Source: Balanoglossus misakiensis (lineage: Eukaryota; Animalia; Hemichordata). From it: DNA of 64,000 nt. The translations under genes were made by a program, and so were the position numbers. Each line of letters starts with the position of its first letter. The stretch's first letter is position 1. The notes below the pieces were generated by a model, which had not been told where the DNA came from, did not search any database, and saw only the letters and a list, made by a program, of their open reading frames with translations. The DNA is taken from assembly GCA_040954595.2 (NCBI GenBank), contig CM082593.2, positions 8,937,200-9,001,199 on the forward strand, in the 5' to 3' direction. Positions 1,342 through 27,495 of the stretch are shown one piece after another.

Positions 1342-4300
1342 GTGACTGGTACAGTTCGCATTCTTACACCAGAAGATGATCAGCACCCTGTGGAAGACAG
1401 TAAAAATGTGCCATGTAATACAGAAAGCCATGGAAAAACTGATCAAGGTAAAAGACATCCTGCGCAATCAACTGCTACCAATCATACCTTGGCACACATT
1501 CAAAAACATACAAGTGGTAAAATGGAGACAGCATATATGAAAAATGACACACTGACAGCTGAAAATGGACATGTTATGAGCAAAGTACATGAGAGTGAGA
1601 GAGATATACCGGTAGAAGAAGTCACAGATATGGACAATACCAACGAGTGCGAAAGACTTGGTGATTCAGAAGACAAGGAAGTCATGACAACAAACATGAC
1701 ACTGACAGAACAGGACAGAGACAAAGTCACGGAAACGGACAATACCAACGAGTGCGAAAGACTTGGTGATTCAGAAGACGAGGAAGTCATGACAACAAAC
1801 ATGACAGAACAGGACAGAGACAAATTCACAGAAACGGACAATACCAACGAGTGCGAAAGACTTGGTGATTCAGAAGACGAAGAAGTCATGACAACAAACA
1901 TGACAGAACAGGACAGAGACAAAGTCACAGAAACGGACAATACCAACGAGTGCGAAAGACTTGGTGATTCAGAAGACGAGGAAGTCATGACAACAAACAT
2001 GACAGAACAGGACAGAGACAAATTCACAGAAACGGACAATACCAACGAGTGCGAAAGACTTGGTGATTCAGAAGACGAAGAAGTCATGACAACAAACATG
2101 ACAGAACAGGACAGAGACAAAGTCACAGAAATAGACAATACCTACGATTGCGAAAGACTTGGTGATTCAGAAGACGAGGAAGTCATGACAACAAACATGA
2201 CAGAACAGGACAGAGACAAATTCACAGAAACGGACAATACCAACGAGTACGAAAGACTTGGTGATTCAGAAGACGAGGAAGTCATGACAACAAACATGAC
2301 AGAACAGGACAGAGACAAAGTCACAGAAACGGACAATACCAACGAGTGCGAAAGACTTGGTGATTCAGAAGACGAGGAAGTCATGACAACAAACATGACA
2401 GAACAGGACAGAGACAAAGTCACAGAAACGGACAATACCAACGAGTGCGAAAGACTTGGTGATTAAGAAGACGAGGAAGTCATGACAACAAACATGACAG
2501 AACAGGACAGAGACAAAGTCACAGAAATAGACAATACCTACGATTGCGAAAGACTTGGTGATTTAGAAGACGAGGAAGTCATGACAACAAACATGACAGA
2601 ACAGGACAGAGACAAATTCACAGAAACGGACAATACCAACGAGTGCGAAAGACTTGGTGATTCAGAAGACGAAGAAGTCATGACAACAAACATGACAGAA
2701 CAGGACAGAGACAAAGTCACAGAAATAGACAATACCTACGATTGCGAAAGACTTGGTGATTCAGAAGACGAGGAAGTCATGACAACAAACATGACAGAAC
2801 AGGACAGAGACAAATTCACAGAAACGGACAATACCAACGAGTGCGAAAGACTTGGTGATTCAGAAGACGAGGAAGTCATGACAACAAACATGACAGAACA
2901 GGACAGAGACAAAGTCACAGAAACGGACAATACCAACGAGTGCGAAAGACTTGGTGATTCAGAAGACGAGGAAGTCATGACAACAAACATGACAGAACAG
3001 GACAGAGACAAAGTCACAGAAACGGACAATACCAACGAGTGCGAAAGACTTGGTGATTCAGAAGACGAGGAAGTCATGACAACAAACATGACAGAACAGG
3101 ACAGAGACAAAGTCACAGAAATAGACAATACCTACGATTGCGAAAGACTTGGTGATTCAGAAGACGAGGAAGTCATGACAACAAACATGACAGAACAGGA
3201 CAGAGACAAATTCACAGAAACGGACAATACCAACGAGTGCGAAAGACTTGGTGATTCAGAAGACGAGGAAGTCATGACAACAAACATGACAGAACAGGAC
3301 AGAGACAAAGTCACAGAAATAGACAATACCAACGAGTGCGAAAGACTTGGTGATTCAGAAGACGAGGAAGTCATGACAACAAACATGACAGAACAGGACA
3401 GAGACAAATTCACAGAAACGGACAATACCAATGAGTGCGAAAGACTTGGTGATTCAGAAGACGAGGAAGTCATGACAACAAACATGACAGAACAGGACAG
3501 AGACAAAGTCACAGAAATAGACAATACCTACGATTGCGAAAGACTTGGTGATTCAGAAGACGAGGAAGTCATGACAACAAACATGACAGAACAGGACAGA
3601 GACAAAGTTACAGAAACGGACAATACCTACAAGTGCGAAAGACTTGGTGATTCAGAAGACGAGGAAGTCATGACAACAAACATGACAGAACAGGACAGAG
3701 ACAAAGTCACAGTGGTAAAATGGAGACAGCATATATGAAAAATGACACACTGACAGCTGAAAATGGACATGTTATGAGCAAAGTACATGAGAGTGAGAGA
3801 GATATACCGGTAGAAGAAGTCACAGATATGGACAATACCAACGAGTGCGAAAGACTTGGTGATTCAGAAGACAAGGAAGTCATGACAACAAACATGACAG
3901 AACAGGACAGAGACAAAGTCACAGTGGTAAAATGGAGACAGCATATATGAAAAATGACACACTGACAGCTGAAAATGGACATGTTATGAGCAAAGTACAT
4001 GAGAGTGAGAGAGATATACCGGTAGAAGAAGTCACAGAAACGGACAATACCAACGAGTGCGAAAGACTTGGTGATTCAGAAGACGAGGAAGTCATGACAA
4101 CAAACATGACAGAACAGGACAGAGACAAATTCACAGAAACGGACAATACCAACGAGTGCGAAAGACTTGGTGATTCAGAAGACGAAGAAGTCATGACAAC
4201 AAACATGACAGAACAGGACAGAGACAAAGTCACAGAAACGGACAATACCAACGAGTGCGAAAGACTTGGTGATTCAGAAGACGAAGAAGTCATGACAACA

Positions 4301-7300
4301 AACATGACAGAACAGGACAGAGACAAAGTCACAGAAACGGACAATACCTACGAGTGCGAAAGACTTGGTGATTCAGAAGATGAGGAAGTCATGACAACAA
4401 ACATGACAGAACAGGACAGAGACAAATTCACAGAAACGGACAATACCAACGAGTGCGAAAGACTTGGTGATTCAGAAGACGAGGAAGTCATGACAACAAA
4501 CATGACAGAACAGGACAGAGACAAAGTCACAGAAACGGACAATACCAACGAGTGCGAAAGACTTGGTGATTCAGAAGACGAGGAAGTCATGACAACAAAC
4601 ATGACAGAACAGGACAGAGACAAAGTCACAGAAATAGACAATACCTACGATTGCGAAAGACTTGGTGATTCAGAAGACGAGGAAGTCATGACAACAAACA
4701 TGACAGAACAGGACAGAGACAAATTCACAGAAACGGACAATACCAACGAGTGCGAAAGACTTGGTGATTCAGAAGACGAGGAAGTCATGACAACAAACAT
4801 GACAGAACAGGACAGAGACAAAGTCACAGAAATAGACAATACCAACGAGTGCGAAAGACTTGGTGATTCAGAAGACGAGGAAGTCATGACAACAAACATG
4901 ACAGAACAGGACAGAGACAAATTCACAGAAACGGACAATACCAATGAGTGCGAAAGACTTGGTGATTCAGAAGACGAGGAAGTCATGACAACAAACATGA
5001 CAGAACAGGACAGAGACAAAGTCACAGAAACGGACAATACCAACGAGTGCGAAAGACTTGGTGATTCAGAAGACGAGGAAGTCATGACAACAAACATGAC
5101 AGAACAGGACAGAGACAAAGTCACAGAAATAGACAATACCTACGATTGCGAAAGACTTGGTGATTCAGAAGACGAGGAAGTCATGACAACAAACATGACA
5201 GAACAGGACAGAGACAAAGTCACAGAAATAGACAATACCTACGATTGCGAAAGACTTGGTGATTCAGAAGACGAGGAAGTCATGACAACAAACATGACAG
5301 AACAGGACAGAGACAAAGTTACAGAAACGGACAATACCTACAAGTGCGAAAGACTTGGTGATTCAGAAGACGAGGAAGTCATGACAACAAACATGACAGA
5401 ACAGGACAGAGACAAAGTCACAGTGGTAAAATGGAGACAGCATATATGAAAAATGACACACTGACAGCTGAAAATGGACATGTTATGAGCAAAGTACATG
5501 AGAGTGAGAGAGATATACCGGTAGAAGAAGTCACAGATATGGACAATACCAACGAGTGCGAAAGACTTGGTGATTCAGAAGACAAGGAAGTCATGACAAC
5601 AAACATGACAGAACAGGACAGAGACAAAGTCACAGTGGTAAAATGGAGACAGCATATATGAAAAATGACACACTGACAGCTGAAAATGGACATGTTATGA
5701 GCAAAGTACATGAGAGTGAGAGAGATATACCGGTAGAAGAAGTCACAGAAACGGACAATACCAACGAGTGCGAAAGACTTGGTGATTCAGAAGACGAAGA
5801 AGTCATGACAACAAACATGACAGAACAGGACAGAGACAAAGTCACAGAAACGGACAATACCAACGAGTGCGAAAGACTTGGTGATTCAGAAGACGAAGAA
5901 GTCATGACAACAAACATGACAGAACAGGACAGAGACAAAGTCACAGAAACGGACAATACCTACGAGTGCGAAAGACTTGGTGATTCAGAAGATGAGGAAG
6001 TCATGACAACAAACATGACAGAACAGGACAGAGACAAATTCACAGAAACGGACAATACCAACGAGTGCGAAAGACTTGGTGATTCAGAAGACGAGGAAGT
6101 CATGACAACAAACATGACAGAACAGGACAGAGACAAAGTCACAGAAACGGACAATACCAACGAGTGCGAAAGACTTGGTGATTCAGAAGACGAGGAAGTC
6201 ATGACAACAAACATGACAGAACAGGACAGAGACAAAGTCACAGAAATAGACAATACCTACGATTGCGAAAGACTTGGTGATTCAGAAGACGAGGAAGTCA
6301 TGACAACAAACATGACAGAACAGGACAGAGACAAATTCACAGAAACGGACAATACCAACGAGTGCGAAAGACTTGGTGATTCAGAAGACGAGGAAGTCAT
6401 GACAACAAACATGACAGAACAGGACAGAGACAAAGTCACAGAAATAGACAATACCAACGAGTGCGAAAGACTTGGTGATTCAGAAGACGAGGAAGTCATG
6501 ACAACAAACATGACAGAACAGGACAGAGACAAAGTCACAGAAACGGACAATACCAACGAGTGCGAAAGACTTGGTGATTCAGAAGACGAGGAAGTCATGA
6601 CAACAAACATGACAGAACAGGACAGAGACAAATTCACAGAAACGGACAATACCAATGAGTGCGAAAGACTTGGTGATTCAGAAGACGAGGAAGTCATGAC
6701 AACAAACATGACAGAACAGGACAGAGACAAAGTCACAGAAATAGACAATACCTACGATTGCGAAAGACTTGGTGATTCAGAAGACGAGGAAGTCATGACA
6801 ACAAACATGACAGAACAGGACAGAGACAAAGTTACAGAAACGGACAATACCTACAAGTGCGAAAGACTTGGTGATTCAGAAGACGAGGAAGTCATGACAA
6901 CAAACATGACAGAACAGGACAGAGACAAAGTCACAGTGGTAAAATGGAGACAGCATATATGAAAAATGACACACTGACAGCTGAAAATGGACATGTTATG
7001 AGCAAAGTACATGAGAGTGAGAGAGATATACCGGTAGAAGAAGTCACAGATATGGACAATACCAACGAGTGCGAAAGACTTGGTGATTCAGAAGACAAGG
7101 AAGTCATGACAACAAACATGACAGAACAGGACAGAGACAAAGTCACAGTGGTAAAATGGAGACAGCATATATGAAAAATGACACACTGACAGCTGAAAAT
7201 GGACATGTTATGAGCAAAGTACATGAGAGTGAGAGAGATATACCGGTAGAAAAAGTCACAGAAATAGACAATACCTACGATTGCGAAAGACTTGGTGATT

Positions 7301-7930
7301 CAGAAGACGAGGAAGTCATGACAACAAACATTACAGAACAGGACAGAGACAAATTCACAGAAACGGACAATACCAACGAGTGCGAAAGACTTGGTGATTC
7401 AGAAGACGAAGAAGTCATGACAACAAACATGACACTGACAGAACAGGACAGAGACAAAGTCACAGAATCGGACAATACCTACGAGTGCGAAAGACTTGGT
7501 GATATTCAAAGTGAAGATAACAATGATCACAGTGAGGACATGTCCAGTAATCCTCACACAAGGAAAAGACAGCATGATGAGGTGACAGAGAAATTGAAGA
7601 CCGTTATACCAGAAATTGAAGACCGTTATACCCTCTGTACAATGTATTGTAAATTTCAGGGATGTCAGCGCTTCAACATAACAATTGATGAGCAGCCAGA
7701 AGATGCTGATACCAACATAATCCTAACAATCAAATGAGATGGTCAAATCAAACATATGCGTGGTAAATCTGCAGCAAGACCAGTCCGTCAACCCATAAGA
7801 TCCAGTATCGCCAGAGATATAGGCAACCTTTCAGCCGGAGAATACAGGCTTCAACAAATAAAGGCCAATAACACAAAACAACTGCAGTACGGAAACACCA
7901 CAGATGTGCAGACTGAAAACGTATACAAAA
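1342..7930 (+). pseudogene. 5' part of NOF-like/MULE transposase gene: repeat region plus N-terminal Cys/His domain
   Basis: After the array, the frame reads CTMYCKFQGCQRFNITI...IK*DGQIKHMRGKSAARPVRQPIRSSIA...LQYGNTTDVQTENVYK; ORFs 7156 and 7756 share a frame across one TGA. Resembles the N-terminal region of NOF-FB-like proteins. Confidence 0.6.
1621..7500 (+). repeat. 99-bp (33-aa) coding minisatellite, about 50 units, with higher-order structure
   Basis: Unit encodes TETDNTNECERLGDSEDEEVMTTNMTEQDRDKV; a ~113-bp METAYMKND segment recurs at 1522, 3720, 3932, 5431, 5643, 6944 and 7156. Confidence 0.97.
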
Positions 7931-7932
7931 AT

Positions 7933-8800
7933 ATAGCTGCAAGCAGCTATGGTCATCTGAGGTCACCCGAAATTTGGGCAAAAATTTTTGACCCCATACT
8001 GGTCCAGGTCCATCAGAAACCAAACCTTCAGCCCTATATATTAGGTATGCATATAATTAATGAGATAAGCAGATGTCACAGGTGACCTAAAAATTTGGCT
8101 TTTCATGTTAGTCCCATCCTGCAAACTCCATGGCTCTACCTCCTAGCTCCTCTGGATGCCAAGATATGGAAAAGTAGGTCAAAGGTCACCTGAGGTCACC
8201 TGAAATTTGGGCAAACATTTTGAGCCAATACTGGTCCAGGTCCAACAAAAATCTAACCTCCAGCCCTATTGGTTCGCCTGGAATCAGGTATTCACATAAA
8301 TAATGAGTTAAGCTGTACCTGTTCTGGAGACCGAGATATAAGAAAGTAGATCAAAGGTCACCTGAGGTCACCCGAAATTAGATGGAAAAAATTGTCCATG
8401 TCCAACAGAAACAAAACCTCTAGCCGTATTGGTAAGCCTTGAATAAGGTATGCACATTATTAATTAGGTCAAAGGTCAAGGGGTAACAAGTACATGTGTA
8501 TGCTTTATCCCACCAAATATTAAGTCTGTAGGTCTAATAGTTACATACTTATGACCATTAATGTTATATATAGGTCAAAGGTCTCTGAGGTCACATGACA
8601 TTGCGGCGAAATGATTTGGTCTGATAATTGTACCTGTCCACCAAAAATCACCTCCCTAGGTGTATTTGTTAGCGTAGAAGTAGATATGTGTTTTTCAAGG
8701 TGGGTCAAAGGTCAAGGGGTCACCCGAAATTTGGCTTCTCATTTCGGCCCCATGCTGATCGCTGGCAAGCTGCTGTGGACATTGGCTGTCCATGACCTTT
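7933..8800. repeat. GGTCA-rich interspersed repeat with degenerate tandem units
   Basis: GAGGTCACC(C/T)GAAATT...GTCCA units at ~7959, 8192 and 8364; several AGGTCAAAGGTCA motifs; interrupts the transposase frame. Confidence 0.6.
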
Positions 8801-8858
8801 AGATAGACCAGAATGCCATAATAGATGTGATAGCTTCACTGTACAGGTATAGGCCTAT

Positions 8859-11800
8859 TAGTCCATGGGCCAGAGACCGAAACCCTCCCCCCCCCTGAGG
8901 ATTTTTGCAGACATATATTTTTGGAAAGCCTATTTATCCAGCTGTCAGAATCAGGTTGTTTGCACTCATAATAATGGTGGGTGTGGCCGTGAGGAGCGGT
9001 TGTCATGGTAACGATAGCATAATTTTAGGGGTACTCATACAGTTAAAAAATGATATATTTCAGGATCTGAGAAAGCTAGAGAAAAAATTTAAACATTGGG
9101 TCTTATAAAGTAGGGTACGGGCTATCCAATGATTACATGACCGACAAGGTCAGAGGTCAAGTTCATCTTCAAAACGCGGGGTAAAAGTAAAAATTGCGCT
9201 ATTTTTTGCATATCGATCATACATAGTTTCGATTTACTGGAAAACGGTTTGCTCGAGGAGGCTGTAAATTGGTCATCAGGTAGCATGGAACATTAGGTTT
9301 AAGAAAAATAGGCCGATTTTCGTCTTTGGTTGTTATTTATATTAAAATTCTGTTACCATAACGACGGATAGCAGATTTTGCGAAAATCACAAAAATAAGA
9401 ATCCTGCTATATCTTTGCTACCAATTAAGCTTTAGATAAAATTTAAACACTCAAACTTATAATGTCGGGTGCGATCTTTTGATTGCTAAATTGAACTTTG
9501 GGGTTCAAGGTCAAGGTCATCCCCAAATTTCGGGTCAAAGTGACAAAATGGGCATTATGGACTTTGTTCAAAATGACATTTTACGGCGAGTTTACTACAC
9601 TGTTTGGATCTAGAATGCTATAAGTTTGTATATTTTGATATTTTAAATTTAAAGTTCAGGGTCACCTTCAAAAGATGGGGTCAAAATTCAATATATCCCA
9701 ACTCTAATTAGAGTTGCAGATCTCCCAAGAAAAGAACGAACCCTCTGACTTGGCCATACACCATTTTGTGTCATACACCATTTTAAAGTTAAGTTCTGAG
9801 AGTTTGAAAATGCTTGATGACATTTTCAATTCCCATGGCGAGCTGATGAATTCAAGATTTAGTAAAATTGGTATATTTCTTGAAATATGCGAAAGTGCAT
9901 TTGCAATTGCTATAAAGGGACATACATTATCAGCATGTTTTTACTGTAAAAAGACTATATTCAACTTATATTGTGGCCATTCTATGGTATTTCAGTTTAA
10001 ATATGTACAAAGTTTTATCATATTTAGCACATTCTTATCAAGATGATTTCTGTTGATATGACAAGTTGACGTAAGGAGTCATCTTGCCCCTCTATCAGAC
10101 GCTGCACTTGCGTGTAGAACTAAGAACAATCCGCGTATCTGCTTCTTCACTGTATCTTTTGCGACAACAAAAGTGGTGAAGTTTGGTCCTCCACTTACAA
10201 TTAATTTCTGACCAATGTTGAGATCTACTTTTTTCATTATGTGTAGCATTTTGCAAAATTTGCTTTGTTTTCCTGATTAGTGGTAAGCAAGAATGCGTCC
10301 ATTTTGTCGGAGCAATTAGATCAAGTATGATATGATGTGCTGGAGCAACACCCACATCACGTGTTTGGCCTTTGATCCTTTGATCCTTTTGGCATCATAA
10401 TTATCAATGATCATGTGTATTTGCGAATTATCAACAGGACCTAAAATTCGGCCTCTATTCTACATTATGTATTCCATAAATCCAATTGCTATATCGATAA
10501 AAGTAATTCTATCTACAAGATTAGGACCAGACAGAGACTGAATGGTCATCATAAACTATGGTATTGGCAGCCTCAATGCTAGTCTATCTGTCTCCTGGAA
10601 ATGAATTTTAAGTCCATCATCTGAAAACAAACAGGTAGGAACATTGGAATTTTCAATGACTCCAATGAGTGGCATCTTCTAACTTGTATTAACAGCAGGT
10701 AATCAAAGATAAACCGTCTTCTTCATTTTTGTCATGTTTTTACATTGCTGCAAGTCATACTATGATAGAAGCACTTACACGGTTTGTCAGGTTCTTCTTG
10801 TATAATTAGTTGCTCAGAAAAAAAACCCACTCAGTCATTTCTTTTGATATAGTAATGTTCATTGTTGCTTAAATGAGGGTCGGAAAGATCAAATGGGTCG
10901 ACAAATGCTCCACCTTGTAATTCTTAAAGCTTTGCCACATCAGTATTCCATCTCTTAATGACTGCTTTTCCATATCGGATCTTATTTTGTTTACCAATAC
11001 TGCATATTTATTTGTGAAATGTATCAGAGAACTTTGCAGTAATCGGTCCACCCAAAACCACTTTTCAAGTGCTAAACCTCTCATCTTTAATCCTATGACA
11101 CCACCAGCACCCTTTAGTGAATCGTCAGATAAGTTTGCCATGAAATCCCCTTCATTTAATGACTCTTGTACACTTTCTGGTATTCTATGCATCACCAGAA
11201 TAAGTACTGACATGTATCTTGCATAGTCCGTTTCGATTGGCACAAAACAACAGAGGTAATAATAGCTGATTCTTAGCAGTTTGGAAAATATCTCAATCAC
11301 CATTTCTTAATGCACTTACATTTCTACCGGTGGGTAGAGTTTTAATGGCAGTAATACTCTACACAAAGTCATACCAAAAGTTAAAAGTTACTCCTCTCTT
11401 GTCTAAACTCAGCCATAAGCGGGAAATGATGTTCAATGATGTGTTTCACAAAATTGTGAACTATTTCCAAAAGTTCATTAGCAGGCTGGGAAGTCAAAAG
11501 ATCACAATCCATCTCAGGCATTGACTGTGTTCCCTACCTTTACACCATGATAAAAAGTTGCAGAACCTAGCGCTGGACGTTTCATCAGCAAGATGGAGGC
11601 CATGCAATGACAAACAACCGGAAAACATTTTCACATGAGCAAGCGTTTTTTTTTAAAAACGTAGCATTCATTTTGTATGATTATGAATGATTGTGATTTA
11701 AAAACATTGCTTTTGAGTATATAATGTGTCTTAAGTGCTTTACGCACAATTTCCAAAAAATCTCTGTGCCTAAAACACAGATATTCGATCGGGTTGTCTG

Positions 11801-13427
11801 GACTATTGCCGCAGTGGCATCATGGGATAACGCATAAATCAGCATGACTCGCACTCCCACGGTCGCGTTTTTTTTATAAAATAATATCCAGAAGTAAAAG
11901 TGGCATCTTATTTAAATATTAATATCAAAATATACAAAATTATAGCATTCTAGATCCCAACAGTGTAGTAAGCGCTCGCCGTAAAATGTCATTTTGAACA
12001 AAGTCCATAATGCCCATTTTGTCAATTTGACCCGAAATTTGGGGATGACCTTGACCTTGAACCCCAAAGTTCAATTTAGCAATCAAAAGCTCGCACCCGA
12101 CATTATATGTTTGAGTTTTTAAATTTTATGTAAAGCTTAATTGGTAGCAAAGATATAGCAAGTTTCTTATTTTGGGAAATTTCGCAAAATCTTCTATCCG
12201 TCGTTATGGTAACAGAATTTTAATATAACTTAATATCAAAGACGTGAATCAGCTTCTTTTTCTTAAACCTAATGTTCCATGCTACCTGATGACCAATTTA
12301 CAACCTCCTCGAGCAAACCGTTTTCCAGAAAATCAAAACTATGTATGATCGATATGCAAAAAATAGCGACATTTTCACTTTGACCCCAAGTTTTGAAGAT
12401 GAACTTGACCTCTGACCTTGTCGGTCGTGTAATCATTGGATAGCCCGTACCCTACTTTATCAGACCCAATGTTTAATTTTTTTCTCTAGCTTTCTCAGAA
12501 CCTGAAATATCTCATTTTAACTGTATGAGTACTCTTGCTATTCCTACCATTCATTTTGTTGTCATTAAAACAGCAGGTTTTGCATATTAAGTATATGTAA
12601 ACAGCAAAACAAATTAAAATCTTTGTAAACAATACATATGTCTATCTGGAGATCAAATTATAGCATTCTAGACCCAAACAGTGTTTAGTAAACGCTCGCC
12701 GTAAAATGTCATTTTGAACAAAAATCCATAATGTCCATTTTGTCACTTTGACCTGAAATTTGAGGATGACCTTGACCTTGAACCCCAAAGTTCAAGTTAG
12801 CAATGAAAAGATCGCACCCGACATTATAAGTTTGAGTGTTTAAATTTTATCTAAAGCTTAATTGGTAGCAAAGATATAGCAGGATTCTTATTTTTGTGAT
12901 TTTCGCAAAATCTGCTATCCGTCGTTATGGTAACAGAATTTTAATATAACTTAATATCAAAGACGTGAATCAGCTTATTTTTCTTAAACCTAATGTTCCA
13001 TGCTACCTGATGACCAATTTACAGCCTCCTCGAGCAAACCGTTTTCCAGTAAATCGAAACTATGTATGATCGATATGCAAAAAATAGCGCAGTTTTTACT
13101 TTGACCCCGCGTTTTGAAGATGAACTTGACCTCTGACCTTGTCGGTCATGTAATCATTGGATAGCCCGTACCCTACTTTATAAGACCCAATGTTTAAATT
13201 TTTTCTCTAGCTTTCTCAGATCCTGAAATATATCATTTTTTAACTGTATGAGTACCCCTAAAATTATGCTATCGTTACCATGACAACCGCTCCTCACGGC
13301 CACACCCACCATTAATATGAGTGCAAACAACCTGATTCTGACAGCTGGATAAATAGGCTTTCCAAAAATATATGTCTGCAAAAATCCTCAGGGGGGGGGA
13401 GGGTTTCGGTCTCTGGCCCATGGACTA
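8859..13427 (-). mobile_element. Academ-type DNA transposon, internally deleted
   Basis: Termini TAGTCCATGGGCC...GGCCCATGGACTA, ~770-bp TIRs, TAT on both flanks (8856-8858, 13428-13430). Minus-strand remnants DYARYMSV, KGAGGVIGL, IHMIIDNY and EEADTRIVL. Confidence 0.8.
10095..11620 (-). pseudogene. Decayed Academ transposase/XPG-like nuclease fragments
   Basis: ORF pieces 10869-11303 and 10095-10355 with the motifs above; many stops and frameshifts. Confidence 0.7.
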
Positions 13428-13429
13428 TA

Positions 13430-14175
13430 TGGTTAGGTCACATGACTAATTACTATTAATTGTTGGGGTCACATCTACATATTGGCCCCGTCCACAGTGC
13501 CAAGTTTGAGATTGCTACATTGAGTCCTTCATGCTTGAATATGATGTTGTCATAGCCTTTTTGTAAATTTGGCCCTTATATGGTCATCATGTCATGTGAC
13601 TAATTATATATTCACGGGTTAGGTACATGTCCAAGCATTAGCCCTGTCCACTGTGCCAAGTTTGAGATTTGGACATGAGTCATTCATGCTTGAATATGAT
13701 GTCATAGCTGATTTGTAAATTTTGCCCTTATATGGTCATCATGTAATGTGACTAATTATCTATTCACGGGTTAGGCGAGTGTCTACTCATTGACCCTGTC
13801 CACTGTGCCATGGTTAAAATTTGTACATTGAGTCCTTCATTCTTGAATACGATGTTGTCATAGCCTTTTTGTAAATTTTGCCCTTATATGGTCATCATGT
13901 CACGTGACTAATTATATATTCACGGGTTAGGTACATGTCCAATCATTGGCCCTGTCCTCTGTGCCAAGTTTGAGATTTGGACATGAGTCATTCATGCTTG
14001 AATATGATGTCATTGCTGATGTGTAAATTTTGCCCTTATATGGTCATCATGTCATGTGACTAATTATATATTCACGGGTTAGGTACATGTCCAATCATTG
14101 GCCCGGCCACTGTTCCAAGTTTGAGGTTTGTTCATTGTATCCTTTATACTTGAATACGATGTTGTCATAGCTTTA
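13430..14175. repeat. ~152-156-bp tandem satellite, about 5 units
   Basis: TGGTCATCATGT recurs at 13581, 13733, 13889 and 14041. Confidence 0.9.
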
Positions 14176-15630
14176 CTATATAGGTATACAGGCGGTGTTT
14201 GCAACGCAAACGCCCTCACGCGACAGGCGATTCGACCAATCAGAGACGAGTATTTCTAGGCTCAGCTAAATCACAGCGACACTCACAACAATCACGTAAA
14301 CATTGAAAAAGGTGAGTTAATTCGACGAAATATGATAATATTTTACTTTGTCCAATGTAATTATAAAGAATAGTTATTGCATCACTCGGTTTGGTATAGT
14401 AATGATAATAGATGTTAGTCTTGTTTCGAAAAACATCGCTGAATTTTCATGAATGTCGATCGCCCACAATTATGAGGGACAATGACTTTCGGGTTTGTCT
14501 TGTAAAATCAAAGTCCATTTTCTCCAAATTTAAAACGGTTTAGTTTTCAAATTTGTGATTATACAATGCATTGAGGTTCGATTTAACTAATTTATAAACT
14601 AAACCAACTGAACCAACGCAATTTTTTGCGTTATAGAGCTATTTGTAAACCATGTGATTTGACGGCAAATCTAAGATGACGTCGCCCTTACAGCCATAGG
14701 ATTTCATGTGAACCTGAAATGTGTACACACGCTTTTTGGCAATTGTTCGATTATATTCGGTGATTCGTATAAGGAAATTTTGTTTTAAAATTATGCAACA
14801 TTCTTATTGTCTTATTGCGGTAAGTTTGGGATACAGAAACGAATGGGAATATCATGGGGAAATAACACATATTCATGTACCTCACAGTTCATGTATTAAC
14901 ATAACATGGCACATATTTTTTCAAATGTCATCAATTTAGTAGTCATAATGTTTTGTCACAGACCATTGTTCAGTTCTAATAGTAAACTCTTTTCAACAGA
15001 AAGCCCAAAATGTCAGCAAGATTGCATAGTCTTGCAACAAGTACCCCAACTCCAAGAAAACTAAAGAAACTGATATGTGAAGAGGAGACCAATAGTACAA
15101 CAGCAAATAGACTAACAGAAGATGACCTCTGTGAACAAATTTTGCAAATGGACAAGACTAGTCTGTGACAATCTTCATAGCATGTGAACTGAGTGTAATA
15201 ACAGGACAACACGGCAATGTCCAATCCATAGTGTCTTCCAGTCCAGTTACTTTGATTTAAAGATTCACAGACTGAGTGTAATTTTTGCAGCTGTGAATAT
15301 CATTTGTGAGCCATATGTGCAATTTATAATACGTCAGTGACTGATGACCAAGAAAACTTGTCTATACGTCATTGCATGAGTTAAATAGCATAATGCAAGA
15401 TGAAGGGGCCAATATTAATCAAAATGTGCATATAATTATAGTGACTCTGTCTCATTTTGAGTGAATAAATAATTATTTGTCAAATTATCTGACTGTTGTC
15501 TTACCTGTGTAAATATGAATGAAGGGCTGTAGACAACACCCCCCTAGTAACTGAATTATGCTCCACAGCAAGGCCAAGATTAGTTTATACACAAGCCTTG
15601 AGACATTTTTCACAAATTCACTTACCATAG

Positions 15631-17759
15631 GGCAAGTGACTTTCACTGTCCACTGCTATAGGGAAAAACAGCTTAGACTTTTCAACAAGTTGTCAAACAA
15701 GCAAGTGCTACACTTTGATGCCACAGGATCCGTAATACAGGCACCACCCCATGTCAACAAGAGAGTGCTTTATTATGCACTTGTGATAAAAAACATGACA
15801 GATGGAAAGCCACCAATACCTCTTGCTGAAATGGTAACATCTGACCATTCAACTGCATCAATATGCCACTTTCTGATGGTGTTGAAGAGATCTGCCAGAA
15901 ATATCAGTGGAACACCAGAACAGCTCAAACAGTTTGAGATGGATTTCAGTTGGGCTATGATTCAAGCCATACTGTTATGTTTCAATCTGGAAGACATGGT
16001 CAGATATCTCAAGAAATGCTGGAATGTGGTGAACCTGAAGTACTCCAAAACAGACATGTATTTTACAATCATCCATGTCTGTGCAGCACACTTTATGCAC
16101 ATCATAAGCAGACACATGATGAAAATGGTACCTGACAAACACCTCAGAAGATTTGCCATGTACACAACTGCTCTGATTCAAACAAGCACTTCACTGATTG
16201 AAGCTGACAGCATCGTTGAGGCTTCCACTATAGTCTTCAGTGCAAACACAAAATCGGAAAGCTTAAAAAAAAGCATGGGTTTTCTTCAATCCATGTTGCA
16301 GAAGAAGCCTGTTGAACATGTGCTGATTGAACAGGAAACAGAGGAAACTGATGACATACTTCAATCTGGTCACTTGAAGTTATACCATGAGAGACCAGTC
16401 CCCATTCACAGCGCATTTTGATAAAGTAAAGGAAAATGCAACCAGACAAATCATCGAAGATGACAAATCACCATTGAATCCATACAAATGTCCAGCACTC
16501 GTAGATATCTTCTACACAAGATATTTGCCCATCATACCAATTTGGGAGTTATGTATGGGTGTCTCAAAACACATTGTGCGACAAGAAAGTGAAACCGGTT
16601 TTTATTCAAGCTTGTTGGTCGCAAATGATCACAGCGCACAATGCAAGTACCAGTGGTCGCAGAATCAAAGTGCTAGTGGTCGCAGAATCAAAGTGCTAGT
16701 GGTCGCAGATAGCATTTCCCTCAAAGTGCGACTAGCACTTTCTTGTCGCACAATGTGTTTTGAGACACCCGTATATACCTGTGCTATGATGCTCGGAGAT
16801 TTGTCCAGATACGACAAGAGTACCGGGACACAAAGATCAACACCAAGAATGCAACATTCCATAACCAGAGAGTCCAATGCTCTGGTAGAAACCTGGATGA
16901 AGATTGTGAAACACCAGATCCTGGCAAAGACCACACATCTTCATCCAGGTAGATTTGTGCAAACCATGTTTCGCACAATAACAGCCCGGTTGCTTGATTC
17001 TGGAATGGCACTCCTTCAAGGAAGTTCTCAGAAGAAACTGAAAGAGAACCATGACAACAGCAACATTGAAGAAGCCACCGAACAATGGTGTAGGAGAAAA
17101 TCAAGCGAGAAAACAGCAAAAACAAGGAGACACACATATTACCAGACACCAGGGAAAGAACTCAAAGAACCTAAACTGCCATCAACTGTTCTCCAAAACA
17201 AGGACACAACAAAATCGAAATCAAAGTTGAAAGCAACGAAGGTGATAAATACCAAGAAGATAAACAACCAGCCAAGAAATACAGAAGTCCAAAAGCAAGT
17301 TGAAAGTGATAAGAAAGACGACAGAGTATCAGCAATTCCTCACATGCCTGACAACCACACAAGTGACCAGTACTTACCTTGGGGTGGTACCTTCAATGAT
17401 GTAATTATGGTGAATACTTGCCCAGTTGACAACACATTGATGTTGTATTACACCATCTTCAAGTATAGAACAGATATTCTTCAATGGTACCTTGATCAAC
17501 CTGAAGATGCAAACAAGAAAATCCTACAAGTTTACCAGTGCTTTTTGCAACACAAGTAGAATGCTGGCAAAGCCCTGTGGTTGAAGCAGTTTAAACCAAC
17601 AACACAAGCTGAGAATATTCAGAATTGGTGGGGATGTGAGAGTACGTATATTAACACACTACTCAATGCCAATCAAGTTCTATCCACCGTAACCTGTTGC
17701 CATCTTGTCAGCTGTCCTAGACAACTTGAGAGGAAAGTCAGCCATGTACTAGCTTTAAG
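15631..17759 (+). pseudogene. NOF-like MULE DDE transposase core, basic linker and start of USP-like domain
   Basis: LHFDATGS (D 15717), RVLYYALV, PIPLAEM, EMDFSWAMIQA (D 15942), CAAH (16080), NALVETWMKIVK (E 16888), NTCPVDN (C 17419). Frameshift at ~16385, in-frame TAG at 17557, donor at 17760. Confidence 0.85.
16556..16771. mobile_element. Tc1/mariner-type MITE inside the transposase ORF
   Basis: ~36-bp TIR GGGTGTCTCAAAACACATTGTGCGACAAGAAAGTG, TA on both sides, internal ~23-bp tandem duplication. Confidence 0.85.
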
Positions 17760-17947
17760 GTTAGTTCTCAATCATTATTTTAGTATCTACAGTACAGTCC
17801 AGGGGGACATTACGTAACCGTTGAACGTACAGCATAGTGGAAGCTCGTCTCCCAAAACTTCCACGCGAAACATGAGTTGTGATATGCACCGAGGACCAAT
17901 TTCATAACCAGAAGTGAAGAAAGGCTACCTGCTTTCATTGGTACAAA

Positions 17948-18911
17948 ATGGGTGCTGATCTGGACCAATATAGAGCAAAAATCGGTGGTTTTGCTGGTGG
18001 CAATCCAGTGAGACAGAGGAAACTACCAAAGATGGCCGCCTTCGTGATTCCGTAAGTGAACTGCCAGCTGTCACTCTCCATAAAGCTGTCTGGTTGTACT
18101 GCTTGTTACGTGTGGCAGCGTTGAATCAAATCCAGGTCCTCCGAAACTCCGATCAAATACTGAACCAGCCACAAAAGAAGATATTCTAGCGCTAGACGTG
18201 AAACTGGACAAATTGATAAGCCATTCTGAACAGGTGCAACAAAAGCTAGAACTACACCAGACTAGAATGGACACCATAGAAGACGATATGTCTGAATTCC
18301 GCGAACACCTACAACAAAACTCGGACAAACTGGCCAACCTTGAATCAAATACTGATTCCATGAACGAAATCAAATCATCCGTCCAACAACTAAGGGGGGA
18401 AAACGACGATTTGAAAAGATCGAACGACGACTAGATAAATCGCAGCAAACGAAATAACCTGATCTTCTATGGCATACGACAGGACAACCCGAATGAAAGT
18501 TGGGAAAAATCGGAAGAGAAGATCAGAACCACACTGAAGAATAACATGGGTATAAACGAAGATGTTGAATTCGAAAGAGTACATCGAATAGTGAACGGTC
18601 CTGTCGTACGGGGAGCGAAACCGATCATCGCCATGTTCGCTAAGTTCAGGGACAAATCGAACGTGTTATCTAAGGCCAAAAACCTTAAAGGTACGGATAT
18701 CAGTATCGGTGAGGACTTTTCGAGGCGTATTCGAAATATACGTTCCAAACTACTCTTTCATCGCAAGTCCCTACTCGACGAAAACCCTTCGCTGAAAGCC
18801 CATCTCCGCTATGACAAGTTGATCGCTACACATGGCGGCGGTAAGAAAACTACGTATATTGTAGACGAAGCTTCAGGAAACGTGTCTCCGATTCTCCAGC
18901 CACGAGAATAG
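17948..18911 (+). pseudogene. LINE ORF1 (leader, 2A-like motif, coiled coil, L1-type RRM)
   Basis: MGADLDQYRAKIGGF leader; GSVESNPGP; RSKRNNLIFYGI; FERVHR; ISIGEDFS; one frameshift and stops. Confidence 0.8.
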
Positions 18912-18944
18912 GGGTGTGGCCAAAGCCCCGAATTGTTTAATCTT

Positions 18945-21900
18945 TCAATTGTAATGTGGAACATTCGAGGTCTAAAACCAAAACTTTGTAACTCAGAGTT
19001 CATTTCTTTCTGTACAATGTATGATGTGATCGGCTTGACAGAAACTTTCTGTACACCCAAGTATAATATAGATTTTTTGCAAAACTACATGGTGTATTCT
19101 TCCCCTGCTACAAAACAGTATACTAAGGGCTGCCCAAGCGGCGGAACAGCGTTGTATATTAAGAAAACCATCTCCGATAAAGCTCACAAAATTCACACTG
19201 AAGTGGAAAACTGTGTATTTGTACATCTTGAGAAAACTCTGTTCCATTTGGAGCATGATGTAGTGATTGCGTGTTGTTATCTCAAGCCCGATTGTATGTC
19301 AGATAGTATGCTTGTTTTACAGAATGAATTACGAGATTGCTCAGTATCTATCCAGATAACTATTTCATCATTGGAGGTGACTTCAATGCTAGAACTAGTT
19401 CAGAAAATGACTTTATCCTTAATGATTCCACTGTATATTTGCCGCTTGATGATTCTATGTACATACCATCCCATTTTCACTTGCCTAGAATTTCTAAAGA
19501 CACAGTTGTAAATGAGGCTGGTAAACAGCTGCTTAACATTTGTAAAAACTTTGATTTGCATATTGTCAATGGCAGAACAGCCAATGATAAACCAGGAAAT
19601 ATAACCTGTGTTACAGCAAATGGTTATAGCGTTGTATATTACGTAATAATCTCTTCACACTTATTCTCTTTTGTGAATAACTTTGAGCTGTTATCTAGGA
19701 TTGAGTCGGACCACTTTCCGATTTTATGCTAAATAGAGTGCCCAAATGTGACAAATAATGTTCCAAAGAAGAGTACTGATAGCACCTTCTCCGGCTGTGC
19801 TCGTTACTATATGTCTGGAAAATGTAGACACACTTTTAAGGATAACATATCTTCTCCACATATTCTGAGTATGGTAGAAGATGCGCAACAGAACGTTTGC
19901 AATCCATCGTATGCGCTTTCCAAATTAAATGAAGCGCTTCGAACAGAAACTTTTTAAACAGAATTGTAAGCATTCTAAGAAAATTTACCAAGAGTCCATT
20001 AGAAGTAAGATTAACGAAGCTGCTGTGAATTCTGGTGAATTTTAAAGCCCTTTATGGGTTGTAAATCCAGAAGCTCCGATGATATCAGTATTGACTCATG
20101 GTTTGAGTACTTTAGCACTCTGTATAAAGAATGTAACAATGTTGACTCGGGTGATTTAAATTTTTTGAGATCCGTGGAGGAAGTAATTGGCCAGTTTACA
20201 TATGAAAATAGCGTGGGAAATGGGGATACGAATGACGAGGAAGACAGTCTAAATGGTCCAATAACAGATAACGAAGTGTTACAATGTTTACAAAAGTTGA
20301 AAGCAGGAAAGGCACCGGGACCAGACGGAATTCCAAATGAGTTTTATAAATATGCTTCAGATGTTATTTTACCTGTGCTTGTTGAGCTATTTAACTATAT
20401 TTTTCAGTCTGGAAATTTTCCCTCAGATTGGACAATTGCTATTGTAATCCCACTTCTTAAGAAAGGTAACGTAAATGATGTTAACAACTACAGAGGTATT
20501 TCCCTTCTCAATTCAATGGGCAAGATATTTACTTCAATTTTAAATGAAAGGCTTACTAAATGGTGTAACAAAACAAATGTTATTTCTGACTGTCAAGCTG
20601 GCTTCAGAAAAAACCACTCCACTGTTGACAATGTGTTCGTTTTACAAGCAATAATACAAAAATATTTAAGCGTCAGACGTGGTAAGATTTATTGTCTGTT
20701 CGTTGATTTCTCGAAGGCATTTGATAGAGTAAACCACACTCTTTTGTTGTACAAACTTATGTCATCAGGTGTCAAGGGAAATATGTTTACTATTTTACAT
20801 TCCATGTATAGCAACATCAAATCTTGTGTTAGAGCTGGCACAGTCACATCTGAATATTTTGATTGCCCAGCTGGGGTCAGACAGGGTTGTATACCGTAAT
20901 CTATCCTTCGGTTCGACCAGGAAAAAATAATTATTCTTTACAAAAAGACGAAACAATGGGGGTAAAAATGAGTCAAAGTGCCAGAAGACCCCCTCGACAT
21001 TTATGCAAATTAGGTTCAAATAGGCTTCATGGTGCGATTGAAAATCAACGACACATTTCGCCACTTGTCCCATTTGTTGTTCCACATCAAATAAATGGAA
21101 GATCCGAGAAAATCCACACTTTTCCAGTTTTTGTACAGTCATCCTATAAGTATAAGCACTTCTACGGTACCGCCTGTGAGTCTTACAGCTTTGAAACCAG
21201 TGCGTAATATAAAAGCATAGGGATGTGGGAACTTGCTTTGAGTTGGTCCCTTGGGACAAAGACGTTTTTAATTTATTCACGCACAGGGATGTATTTTTAG
21301 CCAGACAATGGCAAGACCTAGTTGCCTAGCAATTATCACCATGAACTTTGCTACAAGTTTCACTATCACTTCCACTGGGCGTCTCAATTTTTTCAGCAGA
21401 GCCCCAGCTGCAGTAAGTTCCGACTACCTCAAGGCTTTGCCTGTAGGTTTTGGGGCTCCTCATTTTACTGATGACCATCAGCAACAAGGCAAATTGACCG
21501 TTGACTAAGCAAGGTGCTAAACATCGCTCTTTTCAGGGGGTAATTTTACATGCAAGCTCATTAGAAACTGCCACTTGTATCCCCTCAATTTTCAGCCACC
21601 CCCCTGTTACAAAATGACCCCTTTCCTTAATTAACTATTCACGCCTGATTTGCGGTCAGACAAGGGTCATTCATTCATGGCGGTTTGAGCTCAGGCCAAG
21701 GGGAAAACGGTTACGGGTTTAGCACTAGGCGAAATTGTAGGGGTTGTAAAATAATTAATTATCTGAAAAATAGTGGGTGGACGAACTAATGGAGTGGTCG
21801 AACCGATAGAACGATTACGGTACTCAGTCCACTTTTGTTTAGCATCTTTATTGAGGAGTTAAATTCCATGTTTATGAAATCGGGTCAAATTGGCATACAA

Positions 21901-22960
21901 TTGACTCAAGATATTTATGACCTTTTTTCATTGCTATATGCAGATGATATTGTATTATTTTCAGATCGACGTTATGTCATATTATAAATACCTAGGTCTA
22001 CTTTTGTCTAATCGTAACACCTGGTCCAGAGCAGTGCAAACATTGGCTAATCAAGCTAACAAGGTGTTGACCCTGCTGTCAGTTGCCAGGTGGAAACTAG
22101 GGTAGTTGCAATTTGAATGTCACTTCAAGGTGTTTGATGCCATGATCTTACCCATTATCTGTTATGGATAGGAGATTTGGGGTTTTCAGTTTTATGACAT
22201 TATAGAAAAAGTGCAAAGTACATGGTGCAGAATTTTTCTAGGTGTGCCAAGGAGCACTACCAATGAAGCTGTAATTGGAGAATGTGGGCGGTTGCCAGTG
22301 TATTTTCACACAATGAAACGTTGTATTCGTTACTGGGTGAAACTTATAGAGATGCCTCAGGAAAGACTCCCTAGGCAAGCATATTTAATGTTATGTAATC
22401 TTGACCGTTTAGGCCGTCACACCTGGGCAACATCGGTGAAACACATTTTATTTTCTTATGGGTTCGGGCACGCCTGGATTTCCCAGGAAATAGGCAATAA
22501 CCGTCTGTTCCTTTCAGCATTTGAGACAAGATTTTCAGATATTCTGAAGCAACAATGGAAGTCACATTGTTCGTCCAAAACCAAACTCCGTACATACACA
22601 CTTTTTAAATCATTGTTACAGCCTGAAAAGTATCTCAATGTCAACTGTACACGAAATGTTAAACAAATGTTTGCATGTTTTCGCTGTTCTGCCCTTCCTC
22701 TTGCAATAGAGGAGGGAAGACACCAGAACGTGGTCGTTTCAGAGAGACACTGTAGGCTATGCTCTGGTGAACAAATAGAAGACGAGTATCACTTTTTACT
22801 TGTTTGCCCCGTATATGATAATCTTAGAAAACAATATATTGGTGACATTAAGAATCCTCACTTCCAAATGTTTGTAAAACTTCATGAGTGCATCAGAATC
22901 CTCCAAGATTCTTTCGCTATGTAATTATGTTTACAATGCTTTTAAACTTAGAGAAACTTT
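18945..22960 (+). pseudogene. LINE ORF2 (AP endonuclease, reverse transcriptase, C-terminal Cys/His knuckle)
   Basis: WNIRGL, LTET, GDFNAR, SDHFP, KAPGPDG, NYRGISLL, DFSKAFD, GVRQG, YADD, YKYLG, CRLC...EYHFLLVC; internal deletions at ~19950 and ~21970. Confidence 0.92.
20894..21820. mobile_element. Non-autonomous TA-TSD DNA transposon in the RT domain
   Basis: Imperfect TIR CCGTAATC...TCGGTTCGACCA; TA flanks; removal restores GVRQGCILSPLLFSIFI. Confidence 0.88.
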
Positions 22961-23328
22961 GTTAAAAAACCATGAATCCATACAATAAGCTGTTAAGTTC
23001 CTCACTTTGCATCCTGAGTATGTAATTCCACACATTTGCTGTTTGATGTTGTCACTAATGTACTATTTGAGTACATGTTTTATTTAATTCATTTTTGTAC
23101 AATCTTCTGATTACCTTTACACCCCCTTGCTTATGGGCTGGAGGCCTTGGAAAGCAATAAACGTGCACTGTTGTGCACCTGAACTCGTACAGTCCAGGAT
23201 GCAGGTCTACACCATATACCAAGTCAGGACTGACATGCATGTTAGAAATAGCTGTAATTTAATACATTTTCAACTGCATTCCTGTCTCTGTCACTTTTTC
23301 ACTAACATTGTCATTTCTCTCATAACAG

Positions 23329-24766
23329 AGATGTTCGATCAGTCCCAGTTGGTAGGCAAGACTATCTACAGACTGCCTTGGATCATCTTTTTGGGAAGGC
23401 AACTGCAGAATCGTGCCAAATACCAATACTTGACCAAATACCTGGAAGGCAGCCACCACCAAGGCCAGTTGAGGAGGAAGTTATCTTATTTCCAGAAGAT
23501 GATCCCCTTGGTCCATTAATCTGCAAGAAAGAGTGAGTACACATATTACAACAAACTACTAAAAGTATGCCTGCGAATGGATAAATGAAGCAGTTAAAGC
23601 TTATCTCATTACAAGGGCTCTGGCCCATTTGCAGGGTTACACTCCCAAAGTAGTAAATAAAGTAACAGTTCACAATAATAAGCAAGTGTGTAATTAACAA
23701 ATATGATTGTAAATATATTTGTATGCCAGCTAAAGAAAAAACCTTAGTAAACTCAACTTTTGCACGCCAGCACTACTTTCATACTTCACCCCATTTTATG
23801 ATTGTAATTCTTTTTAGCATGTTTATTTTAACATTCTCAATGTATGATGTGGGTGTTTATGTATTGATGTTGTCATGTATATTAATGTAGCAATATATGG
23901 CTCTGTTTTCTTCACAGGATCCACTGGTACTGTCCAGGCATTCGACGAACAACACACGTTCACTTCCTAAAAGAAATGCCACCTGTAATTGTGATCGATG
24001 GAGCATATGTTGCCGAACAGAAAAGCAGATTCCAATCAATTGATGAATTTCCTAAAAGCGTACAGATACTTGGAAAAAGGTACATGTAGCTGAAGATCAA
24101 TATTTGTCTTATATTAGAAAATGAAAATGTAAACAAATTGAAATTTAAATGTTATACCTTTTACATTTCATAAAAGCCCATTAGCTTTATGTTTTGTAGC
24201 ATTTCTTTTTAGCTTTCCAATTTCTATTAGTTTTAGTGGTGATAAGTAGAGTACAGTATTTTCATTTTTCACCAAGGAGACTGCACACTTGACTCTTTGT
24301 AATCATGGTTATTAAAATTACATGTATAATCCATTACCTATACTTTAAATGTTTAATCATGTTCTCTAATTTGGCAAGCAATCATGAAAAGTATACTGAA
24401 ACTTTATGTCATGAATACACAGATCCCCTAATGTAATGTGCAATAAATGTGTGCTGTACTTTTATGTACAGTACGCAGGAAGGATTGAGGGGGTGGGGTG
24501 TTAAAATCAAGTCATCTCCATACACTCCTCACATATCATTATTTCTTGTACATCTTGTACATCTGAACAATCGTTTTACTTTCTTTCAGATACATGATAT
24601 ATGGAATCACATTGGGCAACGATGGCCACTTTATCTGCATCTTCAGAGTCAACACGAGTGTTTGATGTACGATGGAATGGCTGGGCTATCTCTGCTGAAC
24701 ATGGAATTGGATGAATTGAAAGATGGGGGGTACAGTGTCGAGTACAATTATTTCATCACTCAGTGA
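23329..24766 (+). pseudogene. Three 3' exons (23329-23532, 23918-24079, 24590-24766) completing a USP-like protease domain
   Basis: All GT-AG with phase-2 junctions; translation includes MPPVIVID, FPKSVQI, YMIYGI, GHF (H 24627) and YDG (D 24671); one frameshift at ~24655. Confidence 0.75.
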
Positions 24767-25554
24767 TGAAATAAATGCATTGGACAATGTAGAAAGGGTC
24801 TGACAGGCTTATGTAAAAATATTAACAAAAGATTTGTTGAACTCTCAATACTTCTGAAGAAGACAGTGTGTCTTATGGCGATGCCTGAAAATTGCAGCAG
24901 GAATACATAGATTTTGTTGCTTAGCAAACCCCTTCCGCAGCTAAATTATCGAGAGTTTGCAACTTTTTACAGCATTTTTCCACCATCTTGATGATATCGA
25001 TTCCAAGCTCTGCTAATATTTCTTACATTGGCCTGTCTGAGCTTTTTAAATAATGATAATTAGAGTTCTGACGATATATCAAAAATGATTCTGTGGCATA
25101 TCAGTGTCATTTTCCTAATGAAACAGCCTCAGAAAAATAAGTTATGAATAATTGAACCAAAGTTGCGTCAATGAATGTGTGCCGAGTATTAAAGCCCCAA
25201 GAACTGCCACTTTTTACATTACGTAAGCTTATTCTTTACTATCAATCACGTGATCTGGCCATGTGACCCACGGTGTTGTCATTTTCAGATGACGCGGAAG
25301 CAATATTTCGCTATCCAGTAACAGTTTTTCCGAGTATGTTTTTACTTTAGAAACGACAAACACGTAACATGTATCAGGTATGGTGCCTCATCAGCCTCAT
25401 TGCATTTCGTCTGCACAGTCTTTTGTCTGCACCACGTAAGTCCACATTGCTGAAGTTAATGCATAGGCAATAGTGTCTATGGCTAATGGTAACTCTCTGC
25501 TGTGTTTCAACTTTGCACAACCATCTAACCCCCCCCCCCTCCCTGCAGCTTTAA

Positions 25555-25761
25555 AGGGAAGGGGTTGTCGCACCGCATTGATGTCCCCCTTGATGAGAAT
25601 ATGTCCTATACAATGTACCAGCGTAAACCCCACTAGAGTCACCACCAGGACCTAGTTGCATCTTCAGTTGCTGTAATGCCCTGTCTATGCTACGGTGGGC
25701 TGATTTGTTCATTCTAAAAATCTAACAAACAAACACGGTGCAACGCGACGACCCCTTCACT
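25555..25761. mobile_element. TTAA-flanked Kolobok-like MITE, copy 1
   Basis: TTAA|AGGGAAGGGGT...ACCCCTTCACT|TTTA; homologous to 36387-36597. Confidence 0.7.
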
Positions 25762-27109: not shown

Positions 27110-27495
27110 GAGAATCTGTATCAGAAGCTGATATTGATTTTATGTCATCACTGACAGCTGATCAAAGAGATTATGAGGATTGGTATTTGTATAGACAAGG
27201 GAGCGTTACTGTCAGTATTGCACATGATATCCTTCACATGAAAGAAACTCGGGATTTGAATAACTACATAGTCTAAAAAATTATGTCTGGCAGTCACAGG
27301 ACAATGCCTTCAACCCACATTGATTGTGGTTTTAAACATGAACCTGTTGCTAAGCATTTATATCATGAGCAATACAAAAAGTTGCACCGGAAAGTGAAAT
27401 TTCAAGATGTTGGCTTAGTCATCAGTTCTGACAAGCTATATCTTAGTTCAAGTCCTGATGGGAGGGTATAATGTGAATGTTGTGGGACATCAAAA
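27110..27495 (+). pseudogene. YqaJ/lambda-exonuclease-like fragment
   Basis: QRDYEDWYLYRQGSVTVS...GFKHEPVA...DVGLVISSDKLYLSSSPDGRV*CECCG. Confidence 0.8.

Follow-up and report, generated by a model that had tools for sequence, protein, structure and literature searches.

A 64,000-nucleotide stretch of Balanoglossus misakiensis DNA (contig CM082593.2, positions 8,937,200 to 9,001,199; referred to here as the window) contains the remains of a probable Mutator-type transposon, the transposase of which continues across three introns into a divergent protease with the predicted fold of ubiquitin-specific proteases (USPs). A probability of about 55% is assigned to the reading that this dead element encoded, at the end of its transposase, a likely deubiquitinase acting on the transposase or on its neighbours. 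The anatomy and the fold, taken by themselves, are highly probable. A fused transposase and cysteine protease had been proposed for this region in an original prediction, and much of that proposal is supported below, with changes to the extent of the gene, the class of the protease and its range of carriers.

The three introns of the window copy (17760-23328, 23533-23917 and 24080-24589) each begin with GT, end with AG and lie in phase 2, as originally predicted. The codons proposed for the catalytic Cys, His and Asp were likewise found at 17419, 24627 and 24671, the last two being 44 nt apart and therefore mutually out of frame. In the spliced frame, the sole stop ahead of this late frameshift is the TAG at 17557, which lines up with a Trp of an intact relative. 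An AATAAA follows the protease stop at 24770. The copy is dead, as had been stated on account of the TAG and the frameshift, and further breaks were added here. The transposase pieces begin at 7627, well upstream of the 17370 proposed earlier, and the gene is thus larger and more broken than first stated. Matches to the family profile cover 7627-7944, 15627-16421 and 16375-17742 (E values of the first two in Table 1), and the catalytic region retains Asp 15717 in FDATG, Asp 15942 in DFSW and a Cys-x-x-His from 16080. The exons were covered without alternative letters in two DNA sequencing runs of one sample, and the sequencing runs listed as containing them included no RNA run. The joining of transposase and protease over the three introns is confirmed as real by comparison with relatives, in which splice sites of the same phase occur at like places or both parts form a single chain, in agreement with the proposed splice model.

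The broken window protein, used as a query, retrieved zero homologues. The transposase core alone retrieved four relatives, the best of which, P0002 (a cluster of 14), runs on into the same WGG..NTCP.DN domain and ends at the first donor site of the window. HMMER with P0002 yielded 2,318 relatives at E<=0.001, and the counts below are from the best 150 of these. The domain profile was matched behind the transposase in 26 of the 150, a generous figure (see below) that includes one fragment of P0002's own cluster and one sequence without the Cys box. Named carriers are rainbowfish, characiform fish, sea cucumber, rotifer and springtail. The rainbowfish RefSeq protein P0105 (isoforms X1-X3) contains the whole domain, a single chain carrying Cys, His and Asp, and the sea-cucumber gene model P0039 joins exon-1-like to exon-3-like sequence. 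In P0105, the protease is followed at residues 649-774 by Pfam PWP3A-B_C (E 1e-19), the C-terminus of PWWP3A/B DNA-repair factors, and this host domain may be transposon-linked. Phage records gave no match, and viral contigs no relative. The predicted fusion is family-wide, as had been suspected.

The fold was predicted with AlphaFold2 on the domain of P0105, a relative rather than the window copy, from 27 alignment rows with no canonical USP among them. The model had a predicted local distance difference test score (pLDDT) of 67 and a predicted TM-score of 0.58, with about 90 pLDDT in the N-terminal half and below 50 in the fingers. Foldseek returned 12 matches at E<=0.001, and the 10 listed are all USPs. 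When the model was compared by VIA with 48,161 chains, ranks 1-36 were occupied by USP-family members spanning the full model (residues 1-282). USPL1 ranked first (Z 12.7, root-mean-square deviation (rmsd) 5.0, 211 aligned), followed by USP30 and USP16 (10.9). The matches among viral structures are giant-virus USPs, and viral papain-like proteases reached Z 7-8. A USP fold is therefore predicted from the model of the fish relative, which is what the original prediction had anticipated from AlphaFold and Foldseek. It had also placed the domain in the layout of peptidase C19. The motif order is indeed that of USPs, but the sequence does not make the domain a canonical C19 member: it lacks a Pfam UCH match and HHalign gave 0.2%. 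With a limit of E 10, the Peptidase_C98 profile matched neither P0198 nor the domain of P0105. Pfam gave no match on the window exons, and sequence searches of the PDB gave nothing useful, with no match to the domain. The domain would thus be expected to work like a USP, yet not to be filed as peptidase C19.

The transposase model of P0002 (101 rows) reached a pLDDT of 93.8. D253, D328, C373 and H376 are nearly invariant across the 101 rows, within a D..D..CxxH..E core that includes a helical insertion. The combination of DDE, CxxH and insertion is not sufficient for an assignment to Mutator because it is common to hAT and P elements. The VIA comparison placed ISCth4 first (Z 11.8, rmsd 5.8, 240 aligned), with the P element at 10.4 and Hermes at 10.2, and Foldseek placed it narrowly first (E 1.2e-4, against 1.6e-4 for RAG1). 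ISCth4 is presumably a member of the IS256 family. The Pfam MULE model matched 0 of the best 150 relatives, while a Pfam PHD finger was found in 8 of them and none was seen in the window copy. With ISCth4 as the best structural match and the D..D..CxxH..E core, the transposase most likely belongs to the Mutator superfamily, as originally proposed. The family comprises more than 2,300 representatives without a Pfam transposase model (best 150 scanned).

Four protease classes exchange in one slot of this transposase family. Besides the present domain, Ulp1 was found in 20/150 relatives, and canonical USPs in 16/150, of which five were UCH matches (one of them below the curated threshold) and another 11 were recognized by the Cys-box pattern. 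OTU was found in 1/150 (under cut-off) and also in P0004 and P0019. Many relatives show no protease in their called open reading frame (ORF). A tree of the transposase core (62 rows, quick LG+G4) was built from relatives with an assigned module, P0049 and P0086 being omitted for poor cover. The module label changed 13 times on this tree, against a minimum possible of 4 and a shuffled mean of 30, and the present domain and a canonical USP occur as sisters in the pairs P0084/P0062 (support 100) and P0039/P0063 (97). One transposase, P0119, carries both UCH (a full canonical USP) and Ulp1.

The domain is also found on other carriers. A scan with the domain alone recovered 15 metagenome loci, and the present transposase core is absent from all 15, of which 10 have more than 1.4 kb upstream. 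By their upstream DNA, the loci form four groups, with one locus standing alone. One group encodes SWIM with a MULE-like RNase H (L004, L006 and L014) and another SAP with YqaJ (L009, L010 and L015). The remaining two, L001-L003 with L013 and L007 with L008, L011 and L012, gave no Pfam match and are probably transposases by their motifs (Zator-like for L013). The domain follows four unrelated upstream genes, of likely mobile elements, and is not peculiar to this transposon family. Phase-2 splice sites are present at each of the three intron places in L001, L003 and L005, where intron 2 lies within two codons of that of the window and intron 3 immediately precedes the Tyr; in L004 and L006 they occur at introns 2 and 3, and L008 and L010 are intronless. 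The shared introns suggest that the domain moved as DNA.

Conservation was assessed in 36 aligned rows. The catalytic Cys is present in 34/34 rows that cover the position (8 rows having been chosen by a Cys-containing pattern), with Asp at +3 in 35. The zinc cysteines are kept in 36/36 and 35/36 rows and the Glu of G-x-E in 30/36. The catalytic His is present in 10/13 sequences reaching it and the catalytic Asp in 11/11 readable ones, so that the triad, the conservation of which in homologues had been proposed as a check, is largely retained. The residue after His is Tyr in 7/10 and Phe in 3/10 (the window, P0105 and P0198), and the His-Asp spacing is 15-17. The Gln box is replaced by F/Y/W-G-x-E, the loop before His is short and Y-D-G follows the His strand. 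The domain has C-x-x-D where the canonical USPs of the family have a C-W/Y-x-N box. Ratios of nonsynonymous to synonymous substitution (dN/dS) in the protease exons were 0.17 for L001/L002, 0.27 for L001/L003, 0.14 for L001/L005 (dS 1.5), 0.32 for L004/L006 and 0.18 for L007/L008. These five unsaturated or near-saturated pairs (range 0.14-0.32) indicate purifying selection, but in other carriers only; window-versus-locus and between-group pairs were saturated and were left out. The intronless L008 (2036-2680), together with L011 and L012, has a replaced His and is possibly a retro-processed or inactive branch.

A protease tethered to the transposase would act in cis. An isopeptidase in this place would strip the host ubiquitin marks that degrade the transposase, or would remove ubiquitin marks that close chromatin at excision and insertion sites. 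From the evidence above we infer catalytic activity, ubiquitin as the substrate and a purpose directed against such marks. Ubiquitin is favoured by the exchange of the slot with USP and OTU, the Tyr after His in 7/10 and the kept Glu. A Glu that holds Arg72 of ubiquitin is described in the available text of PMC8983731, and the kept Glu of the domain matches it by spacing only. As a precedent, Helitron VTD domains are active deubiquitinases according to the accessible part of PMC9741609.

Several observations weigh against this reading. The activity of the domain is putative, and the model is middling: 80/282 residues have a pLDDT below 50 and the VIA rmsd to USPs is 4-7 A. A second look with VIA was led by three entries of USPL1, a SUMO protease (Z 12.7, 12.5 and 11.7), with USP30 next at 11.4. 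Pfam UCH (PF00443) matched 0/26 carriers at E<=0.001, with no match for the P0105 domain and P0198 up to E 10, and HHalign against the family's canonical USP domains gave a probability of 0.2% (with a thin template of 4 rows). The oxyanion hole of USPs is formed with an Asn five residues before the Cys and an Asp after the catalytic Asp, and both are absent from the domain. The catalytic His is missing in L008, L011 and L012, which form one broken group. The figure of 26/150 overstates the domain's share because the query itself contained the domain, the Cys count includes the rows chosen by a Cys-containing pattern, and the dN/dS pairs do not come from this transposase family. In addition, the canonical USP marks given in the available text of PMC8983731 are a Gln box, a Tyr after His and a long blocking loop before His; the domain is without the Gln box, has a short His loop and has the Tyr in only 7/10, with Phe in the window.

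It is possible, though doubtful, that the domain is instead a USPL1-like SUMO isopeptidase, with the transposase or silencing factors as the proteins that it frees of SUMO. Three USPL1 structures top the VIA comparison, the model covers USPL1 229-501 end to end and the same slot is filled by Ulp1 in 20/150 relatives, which also counts against a deubiquitinase. The short loop before His, the lack of a Gln box and the Phe that follows His in three sequences (the window, P0105 and P0198) are USPL1-like by the description in the accessible text of PMC8983731. However, USPL1 leads USP30 by about 1-1.8 Z, a margin that compactness may explain, it does not appear among the listed Foldseek rows and identity is 10%. 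Further, the domain has Tyr after His in 7/10 and keeps a Glu where, by spacing only, USPL1 has Phe335. A more far-reaching proposal, which we consider unlikely, is that these domains are undescribed USP-fold isopeptidases for SUMO, or for both ubiquitin and SUMO, portable with their introns as an anti-silencing module and the source of the domesticated animal USPL1. A search for SUMO genes in viral contigs gave 34 matches, all of them chance.

It is improbable that the domain is a module that binds ubiquitin with weak activity or none, or captured cargo that plays no part in transposition. Such a reading would fit the missing canonical oxyanion residues, the loss of His in one group of loci and the many transposase relatives without a protease in the called ORF. 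However, the Cys is invariant, His and Asp are kept in loci from fish, springtail and metagenomes, dN/dS is well below 1, and introns truncate many of the ORF-called relatives, whose lack of a protease may be only apparent. A role in self-processing, by which the protease would free itself or downstream domains as viral polyprotein proteases do, seems more improbable still. Viral papain-like proteases do have the same fold (Z 7-8), a long Lys-rich linker lies between the domains and extra domains occur in some chains (PWP3A-B_C in P0105), but the viral proteases score lower than USPs by 2-5 Z, the zinc site of the fingers is preserved in full and the slot is common to three classes of ubiquitin-like-modifier proteases. 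Finally, chance matches or exons of another gene are a negligible prospect: although splicing in the window rests on sequence comparison and exon 2 is poorly conserved among relatives, same-phase splice sites occur at like places in five other loci, P0105, P0039 and P0198 are single-chain relatives and L008 and L010 are intronless. A transposon-borne deubiquitinase remains the preferred reading.

Table 1. Parts of the transposase-protease gene and the insertions and repeats associated with it (window positions).
Feature	Position	Strand	Evidence
99-bp tandem repeat, 58.5 copies, acidic coding units	1619..7503	+	TRF
Transposase N-terminal part (Cys/His, likely zinc-binding, DNA-binding), in-frame TGA	7627..7951	+	profile E 5.6e-21; tblastn with P0019 E 2.9e-5
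Composite insertion, 7.6 kb, splitting the transposase; TATG at either side	7952..15513	.
Transposase catalytic region, two frame changes	15514..16555	+	profile E 4.4e-88; tblastn
216-bp element with inverted ends, TA at either side, inside the transposase	16556..16771	.
Transposase end (Glu 16888 in NALVETW) and Lys-rich linker	16772..17373	+
Protease exon 1: WGG, N-T-C-P-V-D (Cys 17419), W-G-x-E, zinc cysteines 1-2, premature TAG 17557	17374..17759	+
Decayed LINE (endonuclease and reverse transcriptase (RT)) in intron 1	17804..23186	+	Pfam endonuclease E 1.1e-5, RT E 1.8e-18
Protease exon 2: zinc cysteine 3	23329..23532	+
Protease exon 3: zinc cysteine 4, PPVIVID, FPKSV	23918..24079	+
Protease exon 4: His 24627, Asp 24671 (frames differ), stop	24590..24766	+

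The gene is interrupted by several insertions (Table 1). The long interspersed nuclear element (LINE) of about 5.4 kb that had been noted in intron 1 was found to be 5,383 bp long, between 12-bp direct repeats (17792-17803 and 23187-23198) that represent its target duplication. It contains a nested insertion of 929 bp (20892-21820), and without the LINE intron 1 is shorter than 200 bp. The TATG pair around the 7.6-kb insertion would be a target duplication as well. Within that insertion lie a 152-bp tandem array and a fold-back element (8859-13427) with inverted arms of about 770 bp (97%) and a second partial arm. The 99-bp repeat has long stretches that are open in a single frame and is in frame with the transposase N-terminus, and an ORF at 7087-7737 bridges the repeat and the N-terminal profile match. 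Coding repeats are also present in the relatives P0004 and P0033.

No terminal inverted repeats (TIRs) and no 9-bp target-site duplication (TSD) of the element were found when positions 1-1650 of the window were compared with 24767-34000, and the left end may fall outside the window. A repeat of very high depth in both DNA runs occupies 25230-25700, beginning about 460 bp past the protease stop, and may hide or replace the right end. Near the element, a decayed frame without a Pfam match lies at 26875-27470; by its motifs it probably has a THAP-like Cys motif at its start and a YqaJ-like stretch at its end, resembling in kind the YqaJ carriers L009/L010. Elsewhere, the window contains a Tc1-type transposase fragment on the minus strand at 48747-49154 (HTH_Tnp_Tc3_2, E 4.7e-10), a weak hAT RNase-H match at 34013-34357 (minus strand) and further inverted-repeat elements at 34020-35144, 52450-53997 and 51087-55725.

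The proteases known from transposons had been described in the original prediction as mostly Ulp1 or OTU types. However, the available parts of two papers already place USP/C19 domains on transposons: Ginger1 with OTU or Ulp1, Mutator elements with Ulp1 and a Trichomonas transposase with peptidase C19 are reported in PMC2836005, and UCH in Helentrons in PMC11417382. The present kind of protein is less new because such domains are already in print. MuDRF is described with no protease in the accessible text of PMC3164196. No paper on this domain family was found in the literature searched, a coverage that leaves most subscription journals and Repbase Reports outside, and term searches of the available text of PMC10318531, PMC13359780, PMC4438587, PMC8277862 and 10.1101/2021.09.26.461848 returned nothing on the domain.

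What is new is the Pfam-invisible protease family, the exchange of four protease classes and the ride of one domain on five carriers. A USP7-like fold has reportedly been proposed for one NOF ORF in a paper on Drosophila FB-NOF, which could lower the novelty. Four unrelated or distant proteases in one slot, and one protease riding on five unrelated carriers, argue that animal DNA transposons have been selected repeatedly for the removal of ubiquitin-like marks, which brings an old guess about the Ulp1 and OTU domains of transposons within reach of a direct test. A natural member of the family in a fish, which is intact and looks expressed, is ready for ubiquitin and SUMO probes; an intact natural domain is that of XP_041865592, at about residues 362-643. 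Should SUMO prove to be the substrate, USPL1 would have in this domain its first relative of the same kind.

Among known systems, the transposase resembles the Rehavkus or FB-NOF branch, in which we presume NOF to belong, in its D..D..CxxH..E core with helical insertion, the PHD finger of some relatives, its minisatellites and ISCth4 as the best structure. It differs in that neither TIRs nor a 9-bp TSD were found in the window, and the likeness to Rehavkus is by description only, PHD finger and minisatellites being listed for that group in the available text of PMC6446971.

For the protease, USPL1 (PDB 7zju, 7p99 and 7zjv) is the best VIA match and shares the four-Cys zinc site, the Cys-His-Asp order, the short loop before His and, in 3/10 sequences, the Phe after His, with a His-Asp spacing of 16 against 15-17 here. 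In contrast to USPL1, which is a host gene and contacts SUMO through Arg324, Phe335, Asn398 and Tyr451, the transposon-borne domain is only 10% identical, has Tyr after His in 7/10, keeps the G-x-E Glu and has a beta-hairpin and WGG before the Cys. Canonical USPs (C19, Pfam UCH) share with it the predicted thumb-palm-fingers fold, the motif order, the zinc fingers and the same slot in sister transposases, whereas the domain is without a Pfam or HHalign match and without a Gln box, and has C-x-x-D and Y-D-G. Like Ginger1, the Ulp1-bearing Mutator elements, the Trichomonas C19 transposase and the Helentrons, the present element has a protease of the ubiquitin/SUMO type at or beside the transposase C-terminus, alternative proteases within one superfamily and introns in the gene. 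Unlike in those transposons, the domain here is invisible to Pfam, four protease classes rotate in its place and it also follows four unrelated upstream genes.

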